Shown: positions 593-6,441 of the stretch, piece after piece
Numbering within the stretch: the first letter of the stretch is position 1
How the letters are laid out: each line of letters opens with the position of its first letter
IMG/VR virus record: IMGVR_UViG_2690316278_000002
From: a virus
Lineage: Duplodnaviria; Heunggongvirae; Uroviricota; Caudoviricetes
Strand: one strand, 5' to 3'
DNA length: 6,441 bases
The notes under the pieces: model-generated
What the model was told of the DNA's origin: nothing
Database searches by the model: none
Seen by the model: only the letters and a program-made list of their open reading frames with translations
Made by a program: the position numbers and the translations under genes

Positions 593-949
593 TTATTCGG
601 GGCTATATTTTGTCACCCTGCGTATCCGCGCTTTCGCATTACGCTCAATCTGGATTAGCTTTTCTATATTTTTTCGCCTTTCCCGCTCCTCCTGGCGCAA
701 GAGCCTTACATCATCTGCCAGTCTGGTTTCTCTTTTCGCCACAGAGAGCATCCAGTCAAATGGCTCCACAACTGCACCGCAAATTTTACAGCGGACCTGA
801 CGCTCTTTTTCGTCAACCCGTACAGAAGCGTGATGGCAATATGGTCTTTCCGATGGCTCATAAAGAAAATTAACCTGATTACGAGGGTTATCCTCTTTTA
901 CCGGAAATAAAACAATATTGCTTAACTCATCTTCTGGTTTTATTTCCAT
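593..949 (-). CDS. Small hypothetical protein with a Cys/His motif (C-HH-x14-C-x2-C) and a basic, coiled-coil-like C-terminus
   Basis: 118-aa ORF from ATG 949-947, immediately preceded by a strong SD, AGGAGAGGAGC. Motif PYCHHASVRVDEKERQVRCKIC. C-terminal region rich in R/E/K (RLLRQEERERRKNIEKLIQIERNAKARIRR). No family recognised. Confidence 0.5.
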   Translation of the reverse strand: MEIKPEDELSNIVLFPVKEDNPRNQVNFLYEPSERPYCHHASVRVDEKERQVRCKICGAVVEPFDWMLSVAKRETRLADDVRLLRQEERERRKNIEKLIQIERNAKARIRRVTKYSPE

Positions 950-1220
950 GCTCCTCTCCTTTGATGCGAATGCCAGCGGTAATTGAAGCCTGATAGCTAA
1001 TTTCANNNNNNNNNNNNNNNNNNNNNNNNNNNNNNNNNNNNNNNNNNNNNNNNNNNNNNNNNNNNNNNNNNNNNNNNNNNNNNNNNNNNNNNNNNNNNNN
1101 NNNNNNNNNNNNNNNNNNNNNNNNNNNNNNNNNNNNNNNNNNNNNNNNNNNNNNNNNNNNNNNNNNNNNNNNNNNNNNNNNNNNNNNNNNNNNNNNNNNN
1201 NNNNNNNNNNNNNNNNNNNN

Positions 1221-1468
1221 GCCCTTGAGAGTTTTTTGCGGGCGTTTTGCCAGTCCTTACGAGCCTGTTCAGACGGGAATAACCCGTAGCCAGAGTTGTA
1301 TACATCCCCACTGGCAACCAGCTCTCTGGCGAGAACGCTTATTAAATATCTTGTCGCCCCGGTTTTAGCTTCCAGTTGTCGTAACGTCTCGCGCCCACTC
1401 TGGCGTACGAGTTCAACAACCTGCCCCTTAATTTTTTCCCGCTCTTCCTGTGTAAATACTTTTGCCAT
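1221..1468 (-). CDS. Hypothetical winged-helix-like protein (partial; 3' end hidden in N-mask 1006-1220)
   Basis: ATG at 1468-1466, 15 nt downstream of the previous stop. Visible 82 aa: MAKVFTQEEREKIKGQVVELVRQSGRETLRQLEAKTGATRYLISVLARELVASGDV..., with an HTH-like segment. The same frame continues through the mask into the next gene, so a single longer ORF (593-1468) cannot be excluded. Confidence 0.45.
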
Positions 1469-1483
1469 AAGCGCCCCCGGCAA

Positions 1484-2209
1484 TCACTTTTCCGACACAA
1501 TACGACCGGAGGAATCGACAATCTGTCGAACAATATCCCGGTGCTTGTTCAGCTCCCGCAACGCGGCGCAGACACGCTCCCACTTCTGGACATGACTTTT
1601 CGCCCGACGCAGTTCGCGGTTTGCCATATGCAGCGATGGTAAAACCAGGTCATCCGCTTGCGTTTCGGTGAACGATGGCAACGACTGCACAATGTCCGCC
1701 ACAGTTTCTGTTTTAATTTCTTCCTGTGTTGCAGCTTCCTGTACCGGTAACGCAACACCTGCTGGCTGAGGAAAGACTTTACCATCCGTTTCCGCTATGG
1801 ATGCGGCTTTCGGCTCTGCCGGTAAATCAGCGCCCGGTATGCAGTACCGAAATTTACCGCCCTGATTCACGCGAATCAGACGCCCTTTGCTGATTGCCAT
1901 GGCCAGCGATGAATTCGCCCGGCGGGAGGTAATCCCGAACATCAGTGCCAGCTCATCCGCCGTTTGTGGGCCATGTTGTTCAATCGCCTCAGTCAGCATT
2001 TGCGCTGTCACTTTCGGTACCGGTGACACTGGTTCACTTTCACCAGCCTGAATCAGCCACCACATCGAACCCTTGTTATCCGCTTCACCACGGCGCTTCA
2101 GTTTCCACAGTTCGTTGACCGCATCTTCACGGCTGATTCCAAGGCGGGACGCCACCACATGTGAAGAGGCTCTTTTCAGTGCTTTCAGTGCGTCAAATAC
2201 AGTTTCCAT
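1484..2209 (-). CDS. Hypothetical phage protein with two winged-helix-like N-terminal repeats, an acidic linker and a helical basic C-terminus
   Basis: 241-aa ORF from ATG 2209-2207 with a strong SD, GGAGGA, 8 nt upstream (the track start at 2227 is TTG). The stop of the DnaC-like gene lies 21 bp upstream. Two HTH-like segments: [25 protein letters not shown] and [31 protein letters not shown]. Function not recognisable from sequence. Confidence 0.6.
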
Positions 2210-2230
2210 TAAAACATCCTCCAACAAAAA

Positions 2231-3092
2231 TTACTTCACAACTCCCGGAAAGCTGACATTTGAACGCCAGCTATCCCAGTTAAACGTCACCCACCGACAA
2301 CCGTTCATGGTCATGCGGTCCATAATCCTCTCACCAAGAAGCGTGCTCATTGCGGCATGATTCAGGTTTGTTAACANNNNNNNNNNNNNNNNNNNNNNNN
2401 NNNNNNNNNNNNNNNNNNNNNNNNNNNNNNNNNNNNNNNNNNNNNNNNNNNNNNNNNNNNNNNNNNNNNNNNNNNNNNNNNNNNNNNNNNNNNNNNNNNN
2501 NNNNNNNNNNNNNNNNNNNNNNNNNNNNNNNNNNNNNNNNNNNNNNNNNNNNNNNNNNNNNNNNNNNNNNNNNNNNNNNNNNNNNNNNNNNNNNNNNNNN
2601 NNNNNNNNNNNNNNNNNNNNNNNNNNNNNNNNNNNNNNNNNNNNNNNNNNNNNNNNNNNNNNNNNNNNNNNNNNNNNNNNNNNNNNNNNNNNNNNNNNNN
2701 NNNNNNNNNNNNNNNNNNNNNNNNNNNNNNNNNNNNNNNNNNNNNNNNNNNNNNNNNNNNNNNNNNNNNNNNNNNNNNNNNNNNNNNNNNNNNNNNNNNN
2801 NNNNNNNNNNNNNNNNNNNNNNNNNNNNNNNNNNCGCGTATTTTTGCCCGTCGTTCTGCACCTGATAATTCGCAAACGAGCATTTGCTGTGCAGAGGCTG
2901 GATGCCCGAACGATTCAGGATTTTTTCCACCCGCAACTGGCGATTCTGGCGGTTAATCTCCTCGCTGCGTTTTCGTCCTTCAGCAAGTTGCCATTCCCGC
3001 CACTCCTCCACCGTCCGGTACGGTGGAACCGCCCCCTGTGGTGCAAGTCTGTGAATACGTTCAAGAACCCCGGCTGCCGCAATGTTTTTCAT
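2231..3092 (-). CDS. DnaC-like replicative helicase loader (prophage paralog, YdaV-position); central ATPase region masked; apparent frame discontinuity across the mask
   Basis: N-terminus (3092 down to 2835) MKNIAAAGVLERIHRL...NRSGIQPLHSKCSFANYQVQNDGQKYA matches E. coli DnaC (...NRSGIRPLHQNCSFENYRVECEGQMNA) as I recall it. C-terminus (2376 down to 2231) LTNLNHAAMSTLLGERIMDRMTMNGCRWVTFNWDSWRSNVS matches the DnaC C-terminus (LTNSNMEEMTKLLGERVMDRM...WVIFNWDSYRSRV). The two visible parts are in different reading frames (span 862 nt = 3n+1). The start ATG is 6 bp downstream of the initiator's stop. Confidence 0.75.
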
Positions 3093-3098
3093 GCCACA

Positions 3099-4163
3099 TC
3101 ACCCCCTGAATCCCGGCGGAATTTCGGTATCCGGTTCAGAAATATGATTCACACAACGCTGGTTGTTCGTGCCGCTTACCGGGAGCAACCAGGGGTTTTC
3201 AAAATTCCGGTCCGGCCCAAAAAACGTCGTCGCTCGCTGAACAAATTCCGTTCCCGCTTTCCCGGTCGCCGCCAGGTATCTCGCGTAACGCCTCACACCA
3301 TCCAGCATGGTCTCTGGTGGCACCCCCTCGCGCAATCTGGCCTTCCAGGCACTGAATGCGGATTTCTTCGGGTTTGCCCCGGCACGCAACGGGTATTCCC
3401 GCCAGACCTGTTCGAACACATCCGGATAATCCACTCGTCCCACAGGCTGCCCGGTGTTTTCCGGGGCTACCCGATCGGCTTCCCGCTGAATGGCGGAATC
3501 GGCTTCAGGCTGCTGCAGTTGGAGTGATTGCTCCGGCCTTGCGGTCATCACCTGCTGCACAGCGCCCGAATCGGCTTTCAGCGCATACGCTGAATCGGCT
3601 TCCGGTGTCGAGCCTGCTGGCTGACCAGGATTGACGGTCTGAACATCCCCTGCCTGGTTCGTGGCGTTTTTTACGCCATGGACCATAGTGTTTTGATCTT
3701 CTTTATCTGTATCTTTATCTGTATCTGTCGTGACTCGTCGTGACATGTGCGTGACATTTCGTGACGCGCCGTGACAATCGCCATTTTGTTCCCGCTTTCT
3801 TTCCCTCTCTCGCTGCGCCCTCTTGCGCTCTGCAGGAGATTTTGCGGTTTGCGAAATATTGCCGTTGTCCTCTTTAAGCACCTGGCGTTTTTCCCATCCA
3901 GTGATTAAATCACCATCAAGTACCCGCCCCTGCATCGTCTGCAAAATTGAATCAATTACCTCTTCTGTCACGTCGAGCGCACTTGCCAAATCTTCTGTCG
4001 TGACATCAATGTGACCTCGCGTGACATTTCGTGACGCGCTCACCAGGAGGTGGATATACACTGCCATCACTGTTGCAATTGGCTGCCCTGACACCCTGGC
4101 AATTGTTCGCCACTTAGGGTCATTTGGCATGTCATGCCATAATCTGAGCCAGGCGTTAGCCAT
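3099..4163 (-). CDS. Phage replication initiation protein with DnaT-like C-terminal tail (YdaU-position), containing intragenic iteron-like repeats
   Basis: 354-aa ORF from ATG 4163-4161 with SD-like GAGGTGAGT immediately upstream (the track's first codon at 4169 is GTG). The C-terminus ...NHISEPDTEIPPGFRG resembles the C-terminal tail of E. coli primosomal protein DnaT (...VSEPDSQIPPGFRG, as I recall it). It sits immediately upstream of a DnaC-like gene, as in the chromosomal dnaT-dnaC operon. The protein carries an internal repeat SRNVT...VTT(E/D)D encoded by the GTGAC arrays. Confidence 0.7.
   Translation of the reverse strand: MANAWLRLWHDMPNDPKWRTIARVSGQPIATVMAVYIHLLVSASRNVTRGHIDVTTEDLASALDVTEEVIDSILQTMQGRVLDGDLITGWEKRQVLKEDNGNISQTAKSPAERKRAQRERERKREQNGDCHGASRNVTHMSRRVTTDTDKDTDKEDQNTMVHGVKNATNQAGDVQTVNPGQPAGSTPEADSAYALKADSGAVQQVMTARPEQSLQLQQPEADSAIQREADRVAPENTGQPVGRVDYPDVFEQVWREYPLRAGANPKKSAFSAWKARLREGVPPETMLDGVRRYARYLAATGKAGTEFVQRATTFFGPDRNFENPWLLPVSGTNNQRCVNHISEPDTEIPPGFRG
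3701..3724. repeat. Exact tandem duplication of the 12-mer CTTTATCTGTAT within a T-rich tract next to array A
   Basis: CTTTATCTGTAT at 3701-3712 and again at 3713-3724, followed by a partial CTGT. On the minus strand it encodes the low-complexity peptide DTDKDTDKED. Confidence 0.6.
3730..3775. repeat. Iteron-like array A: five direct GTGAC motifs phased at 10-11 bp
   Basis: GTGAC at 3730, 3740, 3751, 3761 and 3771 (spacings 10, 11, 10, 10). Contains the 19-mer GTGACATTTCGTGACGCGC (3751-3769), which recurs exactly at 4021-4039. Confidence 0.55.
3967..4039. repeat. Iteron-like array B: four direct GTGAC motifs phased at 10-11 bp plus one inverted copy
   Basis: GTGAC at 4000, 4011, 4021 and 4031. 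An inverted GTCAC lies at 3967-3971. TCTTCTGTC is repeated at 3961 and 3991. The 19-mer at 4021-4039 is identical to 3751-3769. Confidence 0.55.
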
Positions 4164-4234: not shown

Positions 4235-4660
4235 TCAATGTACTGCCACAGCATTTCCTGCCGGGCCACCACGGTTCATCTGATTGAAACCGGCGATTGC
4301 CACTGCGACAAAATCATCAGCGTCTCTCACCAGTCGTTCATGCGTCTCCACCAGTTCCCGAAAATAAGCTGAACTGTGGCTGCGCATTCGAGCCACCAGC
4401 GGAGGTGGCATTGCCCTTTCGATCGCAGGTAACAACGCCTGAATTTTTTCAACAGCGTCAGGGGTGTCTTTATCCAGCCAACGGAAAATCTTTTGGGTGT
4501 TGAGATAAAGCGTGTTGTGCTTGCTGTCGTTATGCAGAACCGGAAACGTCATTCCCAGTTCGAAATAAACCCTGGTTATTTCAGCTGCCGGAACTTTTTC
4601 ACCGTCCGGATGCGCCCAGGCTTTCATCGCCATGCGGATGTGTTCATGCTTGATTTTCAT
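4235..4660 (-). CDS. ydaT: YdaT-family protein (putative toxin / cII-position regulator of Rac-like prophages)
   Basis: 141-aa ORF starting MKIKHEHI..., matching my recollection of the N-terminus of E. coli Rac YdaT. Its ATG (4660-4658) overlaps the stop of the upstream Cro-like gene (4659-4657) in an ATGA arrangement. G-rich SD-like GGCGGGGG lies upstream. Confidence 0.7.
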   Translation of the reverse strand: MKIKHEHIRMAMKAWAHPDGEKVPAAEITRVYFELGMTFPVLHNDSKHNTLYLNTQKIFRWLDKDTPDAVEKIQALLPAIERAMPPPLVARMRSHSSAYFRELVETHERLVRDADDFVAVAIAGFNQMNRGGPAGNAVAVH

Positions 4661-4920
4661 GAATCAACCCCCGCCGATGGTTGTGTGTTAGCCTGAAACT
4701 CAGCAGGCAAGCCGTCAGTTGGGTTGGGGTAGGTTTTACTGTCAATCTCATGTGGGGTCACCACCCATCCCGTTGCTTCACACCAACGTAATATTTTTTC
4801 TCCTGTAAGTTTTGCACGCCCCGTTATAACGTGGCTGACCATCCCTTGGGATGCGCCAACAATCTCAGCAAATGAACTCTGGGTTATATGAAAATGATGC
4901 AAATATTCTCCAAGATTCAT
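4657..4920 (-). CDS. Cro-like HTH DNA-binding protein (first gene of the early operon; YdaS-position)
   Basis: 87-aa ORF from the first ATG (MNLGEYLHHFHITQSSFAEIVGASQGMVSHVITGRAKLTGEKILRWCEATGWVVTPHEI...). Helix-turn-helix-like segment QSSFAEIVGASQGMVSHVI. Divergent from the cI-like gene. Weak SD-like AGGG about 7 nt upstream. The track ORF starts at TTG 4947; I prefer ATG 4920. Confidence 0.7.
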   Translation of the reverse strand: MNLGEYLHHFHITQSSFAEIVGASQGMVSHVITGRAKLTGEKILRWCEATGWVVTPHEIDSKTYPNPTDGLPAEFQANTQPSAGVDS

Positions 4921-5031
4921 AATCCGCCCTATGTGATGTGTTACCAATGCATAATTAATAGCACTGTTATTTTTAAAAGTAAATAGTGATGCTATTTCAA
5001 AGTGATTAGCAATCTTATTAGAATTGGATGT
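4921..5031. promoter_or_regulatory. Divergent promoter/operator region between the cI-like and Cro-like genes
   Basis: 111-bp AT-rich intergenic spacer between divergent starts (4920 minus, 5032 plus). Two 15-bp operator-like sites: AATAGCACTGTTATT (4957-4971) and the near-perfect palindrome AATAGTGATGCTATT (4982-4996), centres 25 bp apart. Candidate + strand promoter: -35 TTCAAA (4996-5001), 17-bp spacer, -10 TAGAAT (5019-5024), which puts the transcript start at or next to the ATG at 5032 (leaderless, as for lambda PRM). Candidate minus-strand promoter: -35 TTTACT (complement of 4978-4983), 17-bp spacer, -10 TATTAA (complement of 4955-4960). Promoter hexamers were assigned by eye. Confidence 0.5.
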
Positions 5032-5459
5032 ATGAAAAGAAAATCATTGTCAGACACCGACCTCAACGCCGCCAGAAGACTGAAAGAAATCTGGATGGCA
5101 AAGAAATCTCAGTTGGGATTGACTCAGGAACGTGCGGCGGAAATTATGGGGTTTTCAACACAAGGGGCGGTAAGTCACTACCTAAATGGTCAAACCCCAC
5201 TAAACCTTGAGGCTGTTCTAAAGTTTGCTGGCTTACTGAAAGTTCCCCCTGAGTCAATCAGGCCAGACATGGTAGATTTGCTGCAAATTGCAAGGATGTA
5301 TTGTCGAGAACCACAGCAAGATAACATAGTCGCATTACCAGCAGACACAGAACAAACAGAGGATGAACTACCGTTTGCCGTAGAGCCGATGGAACGAGAT
5401 TTAATCCATACGTTCAGAGCTTTTCCGAAAGAAGATCAAGAACACATGCTTCAGGAGAT
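5032..5459 (+). CDS. cI: Lambda cI-like phage repressor, N-terminal HTH domain plus linker (partial; 3' end hidden in N-mask 5460-6407)
   Basis: Translation from ATG 5032 (MKRKSLSDTDLNAARRLKEIWMAKKSQLGLTQERAAEIMGFSTQGAVSHYLNGQ...LKFAGLLKVPPESIRP) lines up with my recollection of the lambda CI N-terminus ([47 protein letters not shown]...LLAKILKVSVEEFSP). It is divergent from a Cro-like gene. The 469-aa ORF in the track is an artefact of reading through the N-run; the true stop is not visible. The GTG at 5002 is an alternative start but 5032 is the first ATG. Confidence 0.8.
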
Positions 5460-6441
5460 NNNNNNNNNNNNNNNNNNNNNNNNNNNNNNNNNNNNNNNNN
5501 NNNNNNNNNNNNNNNNNNNNNNNNNNNNNNNNNNNNNNNNNNNNNNNNNNNNNNNNNNNNNNNNNNNNNNNNNNNNNNNNNNNNNNNNNNNNNNNNNNNN
5601 NNNNNNNNNNNNNNNNNNNNNNNNNNNNNNNNNNNNNNNNNNNNNNNNNNNNNNNNNNNNNNNNNNNNNNNNNNNNNNNNNNNNNNNNNNNNNNNNNNNN
5701 NNNNNNNNNNNNNNNNNNNNNNNNNNNNNNNNNNNNNNNNNNNNNNNNNNNNNNNNNNNNNNNNNNNNNNNNNNNNNNNNNNNNNNNNNNNNNNNNNNNN
5801 NNNNNNNNNNNNNNNNNNNNNNNNNNNNNNNNNNNNNNNNNNNNNNNNNNNNNNNNNNNNNNNNNNNNNNNNNNNNNNNNNNNNNNNNNNNNNNNNNNNN
5901 NNNNNNNNNNNNNNNNNNNNNNNNNNNNNNNNNNNNNNNNNNNNNNNNNNNNNNNNNNNNNNNNNNNNNNNNNNNNNNNNNNNNNNNNNNNNNNNNNNNN
6001 NNNNNNNNNNNNNNNNNNNNNNNNNNNNNNNNNNNNNNNNNNNNNNNNNNNNNNNNNNNNNNNNNNNNNNNNNNNNNNNNNNNNNNNNNNNNNNNNNNNN
6101 NNNNNNNNNNNNNNNNNNNNNNNNNNNNNNNNNNNNNNNNNNNNNNNNNNNNNNNNNNNNNNNNNNNNNNNNNNNNNNNNNNNNNNNNNNNNNNNNNNNN
6201 NNNNNNNNNNNNNNNNNNNNNNNNNNNNNNNNNNNNNNNNNNNNNNNNNNNNNNNNNNNNNNNNNNNNNNNNNNNNNNNNNNNNNNNNNNNNNNNNNNNN
6301 NNNNNNNNNNNNNNNNNNNNNNNNNNNNNNNNNNNNNNNNNNNNNNNNNNNNNNNNNNNNNNNNNNNNNNNNNNNNNNNNNNNNNNNNNNNNNNNNNNNN
6401 NNNNNNNATGACGGCAGGGTTCAATCTTTAACTATGCAGCA

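Follow-up and report, generated by a model that had tools for sequence, protein, structure and literature searches.

Three small accessory genes 3' of the replication module of a degraded Shigella sonnei prophage: a YdaW-family gene, a lambda ren homologue and a separately distributed predicted zinc-ribbon gene

The window analyzed here, a stretch of 6,441 nucleotides taken as a whole, derives from a degraded Rac/Qin-type lambdoid prophage of Shigella sonnei. It carries, 3' of the replication genes, a block of three small genes that are referred to below as A, B and C. Judged by sequence and profile comparisons, all three are members of catalogued and very common prophage accessory families and are not new as sequences: A belongs to DUF1627 (YdaW), B to DUF977, which ties it to Ren of phage lambda, and C to PHROG 1621. 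The three genes travel independently and not as a unit. As to function, we lean, with a little better than even confidence, towards a reading in which A and B are accessories of the replication module that stand in the slot of ren and act against Rex-type exclusion, and in which C is an independent binder of the nin region.

Open reading frames read from the window place A at 2209..1484 (minus strand, 241 aa), B at 1468..~1007 (minus strand, 140 aa) and C at 949..593 (minus strand, 118 aa). For B, the C-terminus lies under a mask and the low coordinate is nominal. The earlier note on this DNA, which was made from the letters alone, was right in describing three small co-directional genes downstream of a replication module, as a replication initiator gene and a DnaC-like loader gene lie upstream of them. 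The window is more than 99.7% identical to S. sonnei Ss046 (locus L009), and the unmasked S. sonnei loci reveal that the 215-N mask (1006-1220) stands for 176 real bases, which are the last 58 codons of B. Since the masked bases encode the end of B, the region 593-1468 contains two genes, namely B (140 aa, 423 nt) and C, separated by a spacer of 57 nt, and this answers the question of one gene or two that had been left to the lifting of the mask. A single 296-aa open reading frame that can be drawn at 593-1483 was rejected as an artefact, as its reading frame passes through the mask.

The spacers in the block are short, with 21 nt between the loader gene and A, 15 nt between A and B and the 57 nt between B and C. 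Promoter and terminator calls inside the block did not rise above shuffle expectation, which agrees with a single transcript that includes the replication genes; one operon had already been suggested from the spacing. The statement that all three genes possess good Shine-Dalgarno sequences proved slightly overstated: it holds for A, with GGAGGA at 2217..2222 (minus strand), 7 nt 5' of the ATG, and for C, with the strong AGGAGAGGA at 952..960 (minus strand), both read from the sequence, while B has only a weak GGGGG. No RNA families were found in the block with Rfam. Compared with diverged homologues, dN/dS is 0.21-0.24 for A, 0.15-0.16 for B and 0.11-0.13 for C, and A, B and C are thus real genes under purifying selection. 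Sequence searches of the PDB with A, B and C gave no match at E < 0.36, an NCBIfam scan of the block proteins gave no informative matches, and the PADLOC models gave for the three proteins a single sub-threshold match (E = 0.0099) with no passing stretch.

Upstream of the block lie the DnaC-type helicase loader gene (2231..3092, minus strand) and the replication initiator gene (3099..4160, minus strand). The loader, which was identified by PF01695/PF00308 on the gene call of another locus (L004), is really 248 aa long; in the window, its masked middle distorts both length and frame, and the two readable ends lie in different window frames. The initiator matches phrog_3729 (E = 2.5e-249), and its gene carries six CGTGACA iteron-like repeats, where 0.61 would be expected by chance. 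A PaaA2/ParE pair adjoins the repressor gene in place of rexAB, which was not seen here; this weighs against the reading of A and B as genes that counter Rex-type exclusion.

Gene A is a full-length member of the YdaW family. It matches the entire Pfam DUF1627 model (PF07789; positions 1-155 of 155) with 309.2 bits against a cutoff of 28.1 (E = 5.9e-93), as well as positions 1-252 of the 253 of the phrog_630 profile (E = 1.7e-121), and an identical protein is encoded by S. sonnei genomes. It is 80% identical to YdaW of the E. coli prophage Rac in strain 442/2, and Rac YdaW occupies the same place, directly after ydaV. YdaW of K-12 is a truncation of 186 aa without the conserved C-terminal helix, whereas A of the window is full length. 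This truncated K-12 ydaW is a validated overexpression blocker of RcaT, the toxin of retron-Sen2 (bioRxiv 10.1101/2020.06.22.160242). It should be noted that the retron result is a hit of an overexpression screen with a truncated protein, and that no mechanism is attached to it.

The AlphaFold (AF2) model of A bears out the two winged-helix-like repeats and the acidic linker that had been noticed from the sequence. It comprises wHTH-1 (residues 1-53), wHTH-2 (66-125), a disordered linker (130-189) that is acidic and proline-rich, with a pI of 4.05, and a basic C-terminal helix (193-240). The three wHTH domains, two in A and one in B, all have a basic pI, of 9.2-10. In the PDB and BFVD, the fold matches of A are only generic wHTH proteins, the best being regulators of the MarR/ArsR type (PDB E = 1e-3 to 3e-2). 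A was not assigned to the MarR/ArsR regulators, as no MarR/ArsR Pfam match was obtained and the likeness is at the fold level only. We also compared A with Ren. Against phrog_142, whole-protein E was 1.9e-4, over residues 71-120, with no stretch passing alone, and an hhalign comparison with B and Ren together gave E = 0.025 and a probability of 2%, from profiles that are shallow (Neff 1.3) because homologue searches returned mostly E. coli proteins of more than 80% identity. Ren was absent among the BFVD fold matches of A. Homology between A and Ren past the shared winged-helix fold is thus not established.

Gene B is readable in the window for codons 1-82 (1221-1468), and these encode the winged helix that had been noticed before. 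This fragment alone scores 54.7 bits against DUF977 (PF06163, cutoff 22.1; E = 1.5e-14), while full-length B from the unmasked locus scores 105.9 bits (E = 2.2e-30) over model positions 1-134 of 134. B is a full-length member of the LygF/DUF977 family of Rac-type phages and of the Salmonella Enteritidis Sdf region. In records of Rac-type phages, B is annotated as LygF; the literature searched offered LygF only as a name given by position in the Salmonella Sdf region, and it yielded no paper on a function of LygF, DUF1627 or DUF977.

The earlier note had recognized no classic lambdoid function in the block, and on this point it has to be corrected. B and lambda Ren both match PHROG 142, "Ren-like exclusion protein", from end to end, B with E = 2e-46 (profile positions 1-115 of 116) and Ren with E = 1.6e-41 (positions 11-110 of 116). 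BLASTP aligns the C-terminal motif of the two proteins with 12 of 20 residues identical (E = 4e-7). According to these matches, B is a long-form homologue of lambda Ren, the product of a classic lambdoid gene. The two proteins have in common the C-terminal motif N-x4-E-C-R-x-S-x2-M-x-R-V-L-A-x-Y, a TGAT turn in the HTH and an LV-G-V wing; both are small and basic, B is, like Ren, presumably non-essential, and the two genes lie shortly 3' of the helicase loader gene, within replication modules of the initiator/loader type. They differ in that Ren has 96 aa and B 140 aa, with an N-terminal extension of ~10 residues and a basic insertion of ~30 residues, and overall identity is about 31%. Unlike ren, gene B of the window neither overlaps the loader gene nor is coupled to it in translation, as A and the 15-nt spacer stand between them; in L016-L019, which are loci of E. 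coli and S. flexneri, A is missing and B abuts DnaC directly. The S. sonnei allele of B carries L128P, that is, a proline in place of the otherwise invariant leucine of RVLAxY.

Lambda forms plaques without ren and requires it to grow well on Rex+ lysogens. The suppressors of ren mutants lie in O and P, and in two-hybrid assays Ren interacts with RexA and RexB (bioRxiv 10.1101/2021.04.19.439022 supplement; PMC10695390). This should be considered when B is referred to as Ren-like, as resistance to Rex exclusion and contact with RexA/RexB are known for lambda Ren only (bioRxiv 10.1101/2021.04.19.439022 supplement). The homology connects B to the question of how Ren acts, which has been unsolved for 45 years and leaves the statement that B works like Ren with limited content. 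A, short Ren and long Ren (B) offer three natural variants with which ren function could be dissected.

Gene C matches phrog_1621 over profile positions 1-118 of 134 (E = 1.1e-54) and shows no Pfam match above cutoff. PHROG 1621 itself is without a Pfam model, and this family, which is large in phages (1,648 sequence clusters of relatives in a profile search), is still without a Pfam entry; looking up the clusters of distant relatives gave no informative names. The Cys/His motif and the basic tail described earlier are both present, as C38-x-H40...C54-x-x-C57 and as a long, basic C-terminal helix (pI 10.5) that ends in ERNAKARIRR and is modeled by AF2 with pLDDT >90. The N-terminus is acidic and disordered, with a (V/I)xFP patch. 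Across 119 distant members, C38, C54 and C57 are invariant, and H40, R50, L98 and R108 are conserved in at least 90%.

A Foldseek search of the PDB with C found no fold relative at E < 0.26, the likeness being to a generic zinc ribbon only, with no partner indicated. The only likeness of C in Pfam or Foldseek is to the TFIIB-type zinc ribbon (PF08271; 1pft, E = 0.26), by way of C-x-H...C-x-x-C, and it reaches 21.6 bits, below the cutoff of 29, over ~27 residues, the rest of C having no TFIIB counterpart; only 8 of the 119 family members reach E <= 1e-3. In several genera, C fills the interval between NinG and Q, where lambda has ninH and ninI, and it shares with the lambda nin-region proteins its small size, its basic nature and the start/stop coupling to neighbouring genes. 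The likeness is positional only, as no sequence or fold relation of C to the named nin proteins is detectable. NinH is a DNA-binding protein; C differs from it in being a zinc ribbon with a long helix and not an HTH protein. A role for C as controller of the downstream BsuBI/PstI-type R-M system was also considered and rejected, as C is not an HTH protein and is frequent in loci without adjacent R-M genes.

Among 5,426 complete E. coli genomes, A was found in 809, B in 3,891 and C in 1,671. The families are annotated as DUF or PHROG and occur in a large proportion of the genomes of E. coli and Shigella, so that the earlier description of the block as undescribed does not apply: A is DUF1627, B is DUF977, and B alone accounts for the highest of these counts. 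Nor does the trio behave as the unit that had been suggested, as the co-occurrence check found the genes not conserved together, an outcome that the earlier note itself had named as speaking against its suggestion. In 80 A-anchored viral loci, A, B and C follow each other in order in about 13, and about 50 have no B; the B-C pair also occurs without A. Whether B comes next is decided by a mosaic joint in the last ~15 codons of A, and in B-less loci the gene after A encodes an HTH regulator-like protein of phrog_323. For C, neither A nor B was detected in 14 of 20 C-anchored genome loci, all of them outside Escherichia/Shigella; 12 such loci were considered in detail, and there C, as a rule, shows start/stop coupling to NinG/YbcO/RusA-like genes and stands just upstream of Q.

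The position of A follows a strict rule. Throughout the 80 A-anchored viral loci, it comes directly after a loader gene of the DnaC type or the lambda-P type, and short Ren is never present. In the 80 Ren-anchored loci, taken from viral contigs in which the scan with lambda Ren gave only copies of 99-100% identity, the order P>Ren>NinB is complete in 79, and none of these loci contains A, B or C. Within the 160 sampled loci, the post-loader position thus holds either A or short Ren and never both.

We propose that the degraded lambdoid prophage carries A, B and C as three separate accessory genes of the delayed-early class, and that transcription starting at the early rightward promoter probably reads through the block as well as through the cro-like, YdaT-like, initiator and DnaC-like genes. 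A and B occupy the post-loader position, in which ren stands in lambda. From the biology of lambda ren and from this slot, we infer that B, and A by its position, work with the initiator/loader replication module as partners that the phage can dispense with. Through their basic winged helices, along with the conserved C-terminal helix or motif, they would attach to an exclusion protein, to the replication complex or to the DNA of that complex, and such binding would keep Rex-type exclusion or similar abortive-infection systems from aborting phage replication. An anti-defence or accessory role for A and B is plausible, considering the link to Ren and the screen hit of K-12 ydaW. If A and B indeed prove to counter defence systems, a cargo that is very common in prophages gains a role; if they do not, the outcome is routine prophage annotation. 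C is unrelated to A and B, a mobile gene of the nin region, whose product most likely dimerises via its long helix and most likely binds nucleic acid or a host protein via the zinc ribbon and the invariant basic end of the helix. What the comparisons show are the identities and anatomy of the genes, the families to which they belong, their rules of position, their independent distribution and the purifying selection on them; all that is said here on function is inferred.

A different explanation, to which we assign a limited chance, is that A and B are ordinary sequence-specific MarR/ArsR-like regulators of delayed-early or host genes, with no link to replication or exclusion. The top fold matches of A and the basic wHTH domains of both proteins would agree with this, as would the presence of YdaW among the predicted E. 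coli transcription factors (PMC9308461), the weak-to-moderate matches of A, B and Ren to PHROGs labeled as transcriptional or MarR-family regulators, and the regulator-like phrog_323 protein that follows A where B is missing. However, no Pfam regulator family was matched above cutoff, operator-like repeats were not noticed beside the genes, and winged helices also serve as protein-binding modules, as in ScpB, which is itself among the fold matches of A. Moreover, ordinary regulators would not be predicted to keep strictly to the post-loader position, whatever the loader type, or to exclude short Ren.

Somewhat more doubtful is the possibility that the ren slot is a hot spot of interchangeable counter-defence genes. 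Short Ren, long Ren (DUF977) and the tandem winged-helix protein YdaW (DUF1627) would then be alternative shields that keep Rex, RcaT-like retron toxins or other abortive-infection systems from sensing the phage replication complex or acting on it. C would, separately, found a large and unnamed phage family of the zinc-ribbon/basic-helix kind, the 1,648 clusters, with a conserved molecular target.

It is improbable, in our view, that the S. sonnei block is merely the non-functional cargo of a dead prophage, its open reading frames being intact only because decay is recent. An R-M insertion and copies of IS1 truncate the element beyond C, genes neighbouring the block are frameshifted in some S. 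sonnei genomes (L006, L008, L012), and L128P falls within the most conserved motif of B. The local S. sonnei copies may thus be decaying, given this substitution and the cutting of the prophage. Nonetheless, the reading frames of A, B and C are all intact across the many S. sonnei genomes examined, and the family-level dN/dS (0.11-0.24) reflects purifying selection. Decay of this kind would in any case concern the local copy only, and is silent on the roles of the families.

That A, B and C form one dedicated anti-defence or host-takeover operon, with products acting jointly, is very unlikely and is largely refuted by the co-occurrence data: the co-directional and tightly spaced genes with internal promoter and terminator calls within shuffle background, the block of a retron toxin by overexpressed K-12 ydaW, the countering of Rex exclusion by Ren and the A-B-C order kept in a minority of A-anchored loci would all suit such an operon, but the genes assort independently (A without B, B-C without A, C alone in other genera), their prevalence differs about five-fold, the mosaic joint in the 3' end of A decides whether B comes next, none of the three has a PADLOC match, and what looks like the scar of an Ea22-gene deletion stands between B and C.

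This apparent scar is seen as a 27-codon mini-ORF (MSEISYQASITAGIRIKGEEHGNKTRR) between B and C, the readable part of which lies at 927..1005 of the window (minus strand; 7161-7244 in L009). Its start overlaps the stop of B (GTGA), and its end lies inside the first codons of C. It looks like what a deletion would have left of an ead/Ea22-like gene, as its N- and C-termini match those of the full Ead/Ea22-like genes that precede C in two other loci (L064 and L077).

Exact-protein look-ups placed the window in Shigella sonnei (e.g. Ss046, CP000038), where the corresponding loci lie in a degraded Qin/Rac-type prophage adjoining ydfI and ydfZ. Where a base-for-base comparison is possible, the readable parts share 99.8-100% identity with L009, the unmasked Ss046 reference locus. 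All genes of the finding are carried on the minus strand and are transcribed in this order: a cro-like gene (4920..4657), a YdaT/CII-like gene (4660..4235), the replication initiator (4160..3099; phrog_3729, E = 2.5e-249), a DnaC-type helicase loader (3092..2231, partly masked) and three small genes, A (2209..1484, 241 aa), B (from 1468 into a mask, 140 aa when unmasked) and C (949..593, 118 aa). It should be considered that the masks (126-553, 1006-1220, 2377-2834 and 5460-6407) are N runs differing from the real length. The dnaC-like gene accordingly appears longer than it is by ~115 nt, the two ends that can be read fall in different reading frames, and the 296-aa ORF at 593..1483 is a masking artefact, as are other ORFs that read through a mask. 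Whether 593-1468 holds one gene or two, a question left by the earlier note, was settled from the unmasked S. sonnei sequence: the 215 N of mask 1006-1220 stand for 176 bases, and since B has its final 58 codons and its stop in these, the stretch consists of two genes, B and C, with a 57-nt spacer between them.

The three genes are real, as seen from their ORFs, their Shine-Dalgarno sites (GGAGGA for A, a weak GGGGG for B and AGGAGAGGA for C), their spacers (21 nt before A and 15 nt before B, besides that before C) and dN/dS values against diverged homologues of 0.21-0.24 for A, 0.15-0.16 for B and 0.11-0.13 for C, and the protein anatomy first described for them was accurate. Promoter and terminator searches inside the block gave no calls above background, and an Rfam search of the block gave no match. 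The earlier view of the block as holding an undescribed function, with no classic lambdoid function recognised in it, is not supported, however: all three belong to catalogued, already known families that are extremely common in prophages, and B is a Ren homologue.

B is a DUF977 protein in Pfam and is named "LygF" in phage records. B and lambda Ren both match the whole PHROG 142 "Ren-like exclusion protein" profile (E = 2e-46 and 1.6e-41, respectively) and have in common the helix-turn-helix turn TGAT, the wing and the C-terminal motif N....ECR.S..M.RVLA.Y, while B adds an N-terminal extension and a basic insertion of ~30 residues. The shared profile, turn, wing and motif thus identify B as a long form of Ren. 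All E. coli, Rac and lambda Ren sequences in the comparison have Leu in RVLAxY, and only the S. sonnei allele has Pro (RVPAFY; codon 128, L009 7123-7125, masked in the window), which may be a sign of decay in a cryptic prophage. E. coli ECMA0423 and S. flexneri SFBU1023 (loci L016-L019) each contain two DnaC-B-C copies without A, one of which, in either genome, has its dnaC-like gene broken into two ORFs.

A belongs over its full length to DUF1627 (309 bits; Pfam cutoff 28.1) and to phrog_630, and is the YdaW protein of prophage Rac. In its AlphaFold model (mean pLDDT 63, ~80 in the folded parts), two winged helices (1-53 and 66-125; pI about 10) are followed by a disordered acidic linker (130-189; pI 4.05) and a long C-terminal helix (193-240; pI 10.8). 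The K-12 ydaW product is a 186-aa version without this helix, and K-12 ydaW, when overexpressed, was validated as a "blocker" of RcaT, the toxin of retron-Sen2 (bioRxiv 10.1101/2020.06.22.160242). Aligned with Ren/B by hhalign, A gave E = 0.025, and A-Ren homology beyond the shared winged-helix fold is unproven.

In the A-anchored loci, A always directly follows a helicase loader, either DnaC-type or lambda-P-type (PF06992). The 80 loci anchored on lambda Ren have the order P>Ren>NinB, complete in 79, and no A, B or C was found in them; likewise, no short Ren was found in the 80 A-anchored loci. The post-loader position in the loci sampled is filled by short Ren, by A or by long Ren (B, alone or after A) as alternatives, and A, B and short Ren offer three natural variants for study of the ren slot. 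In the supplement of one preprint (bioRxiv 10.1101/2021.04.19.439022), O, P and ren are said to overlap and to be co-translated, Ren to go with all initiator/helicase-loader modules, and ren mutants to grow poorly on Rex+ lysogens with suppressors in O and P; RexB-Ren and RexA-Ren two-hybrid interactions are reported, and the mechanism of Ren is described as unknown. Plaque formation is possible without Ren (PMC10695390).

On the most likely reading, B, and A by its position, would be non-essential accessories of the phage replication module, whose basic winged helices and conserved C-terminal elements might bind the replication complex, its DNA or an exclusion protein and so shield replication from Rex-type or other abortive-infection responses. 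We regard this protective role as evenly balanced for B and as possible, if clearly less probable, for A. The main rival takes A and B as plain MarR-like regulators; fold searches with A returned generic winged-helix proteins only (such as MarR, ArsR, ScpB and TFE). A joint anti-defence operon of A, B and C, raised by the earlier note, is largely refuted, being contradicted by the co-occurrence data.

Nor are the three a conserved unit, given their unequal prevalence, their separate loci, a joint in A and a deletion scar between B and C. Of 5,426 complete genomes of E. coli searched by megablast with a coverage threshold of 80%, 809 carried A, 3,891 carried B and 1,671 carried C. In a C-anchored sample of 20 loci from species-representative genomes, those of E. 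coli and S. flexneri had the order DnaC-B-C without A, and C occurred without A or B in Kluyvera, Erwinia, Symbiopectobacterium, Photorhabdus, Pantoea, Yersinia, Phytobacter, Entomohabitans and Leclercia, there mostly in start/stop coupling with a NinG-, YbcO- or RusA-like gene and directly upstream of a Q antiterminator. C is an independent nin-region gene. In 80 A-anchored viral contigs, B came directly after A in about a third, all three genes were found in ~13 and A stood without B in ~50. With the A tail ...SEK (241 aa), B was next in 21/21 loci; with ...REQQR (238-247 aa) it was next in 0/48, the tail being followed by an overlapping HTH protein (phrog_323) and then by DUF4406 and Ead/Ea22 genes. 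As the tail type predicts the next gene, a mosaic recombination joint can be placed in the last ~15 codons of A (codons ~226-241, window ~1484-1535, minus strand; tail/neighbour pairing in loci L037-L116). The B-C spacer holds a minus-strand mini-ORF of 27 codons, MSEISYQASITAGIRIKGEEHGNKTRR (window 927-1005 plus adjoining masked bases; L009 7161-7244), with a start overlapping the B stop (GTGA) and an end inside the first codons of C. It joins N- and C-termini typical of the full Ead/Ea22-like genes preceding C in loci L064 and L077 and, from this sequence likeness, looks like the internal-deletion scar of such a gene. The present B-C adjacency would therefore have arisen by deletion, and the scar would also explain the database "ead/Ea22-like" fusions with C (protein records P0006 and P0043).

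C has no Pfam family, with a TFIIB zinc-ribbon match below cutoff, and belongs to phrog_1621, a PHROG without assigned function. Its model comprises a disordered acidic N-terminus, a small zinc ribbon (36-61) and a long helix (63-115, pLDDT above 90), and a fold search against the PDB yielded no structure with E below 0.26. An exhaustive profile search, counted as clusters at 50% identity, gave 1,648 clusters of relatives at E <= 1e-3 and 280 at E <= 1e-10. In 119 distant members, the residues C38, C54 and C57 never vary, H40, R50, L98 and R108 are conserved to 90% or more, and the helix ends in E(R/K)NxKARxRR; 0/119 have a match to any named family of Pfam, and all three PHROGs that they match are function-unassigned. 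The family is a large zinc-ribbon group without a Pfam entry. C may be a dimer, joined through the long helix, that binds nucleic acid or a host protein through its zinc ribbon and basic end; our confidence in this reading is low, and the searches pointed to no partner.

Within the initiator gene, window 3739-4026 contains six CGTGACA copies in two clusters, against 0.61 expected by chance; these appear iteron-like and suggest an origin inside the gene, as in lambda. Beside them, the short tandem repeat ATCTTTATCTGT... occupies ~3700-3727. Directly downstream of C (window 1-~378, minus strand, start masked; L009 7793-10704), a restriction-modification pair stands in place of the prophage's nin/Q/lysis part and is followed by IS1 and ydfI. 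It consists of a 610-aa N6-adenine methyltransferase (Eco57I/N6_Mtase domains), whose gene some S. sonnei genomes carry in split form, and a BsuBI/PstI-family endonuclease of 360 aa. On the plus strand at 5002-6411 (mostly masked; comparison locus L004 2289-3230), PaaA2 antitoxin and ParE toxin genes come after a repressor-like HTH gene that is divergent from the cro-like gene, and they occupy the position of lambda rexA-rexB. Three-component PaaR2-PaaA2-ParE2 systems in E. coli O157 prophages presumably have a similar arrangement.
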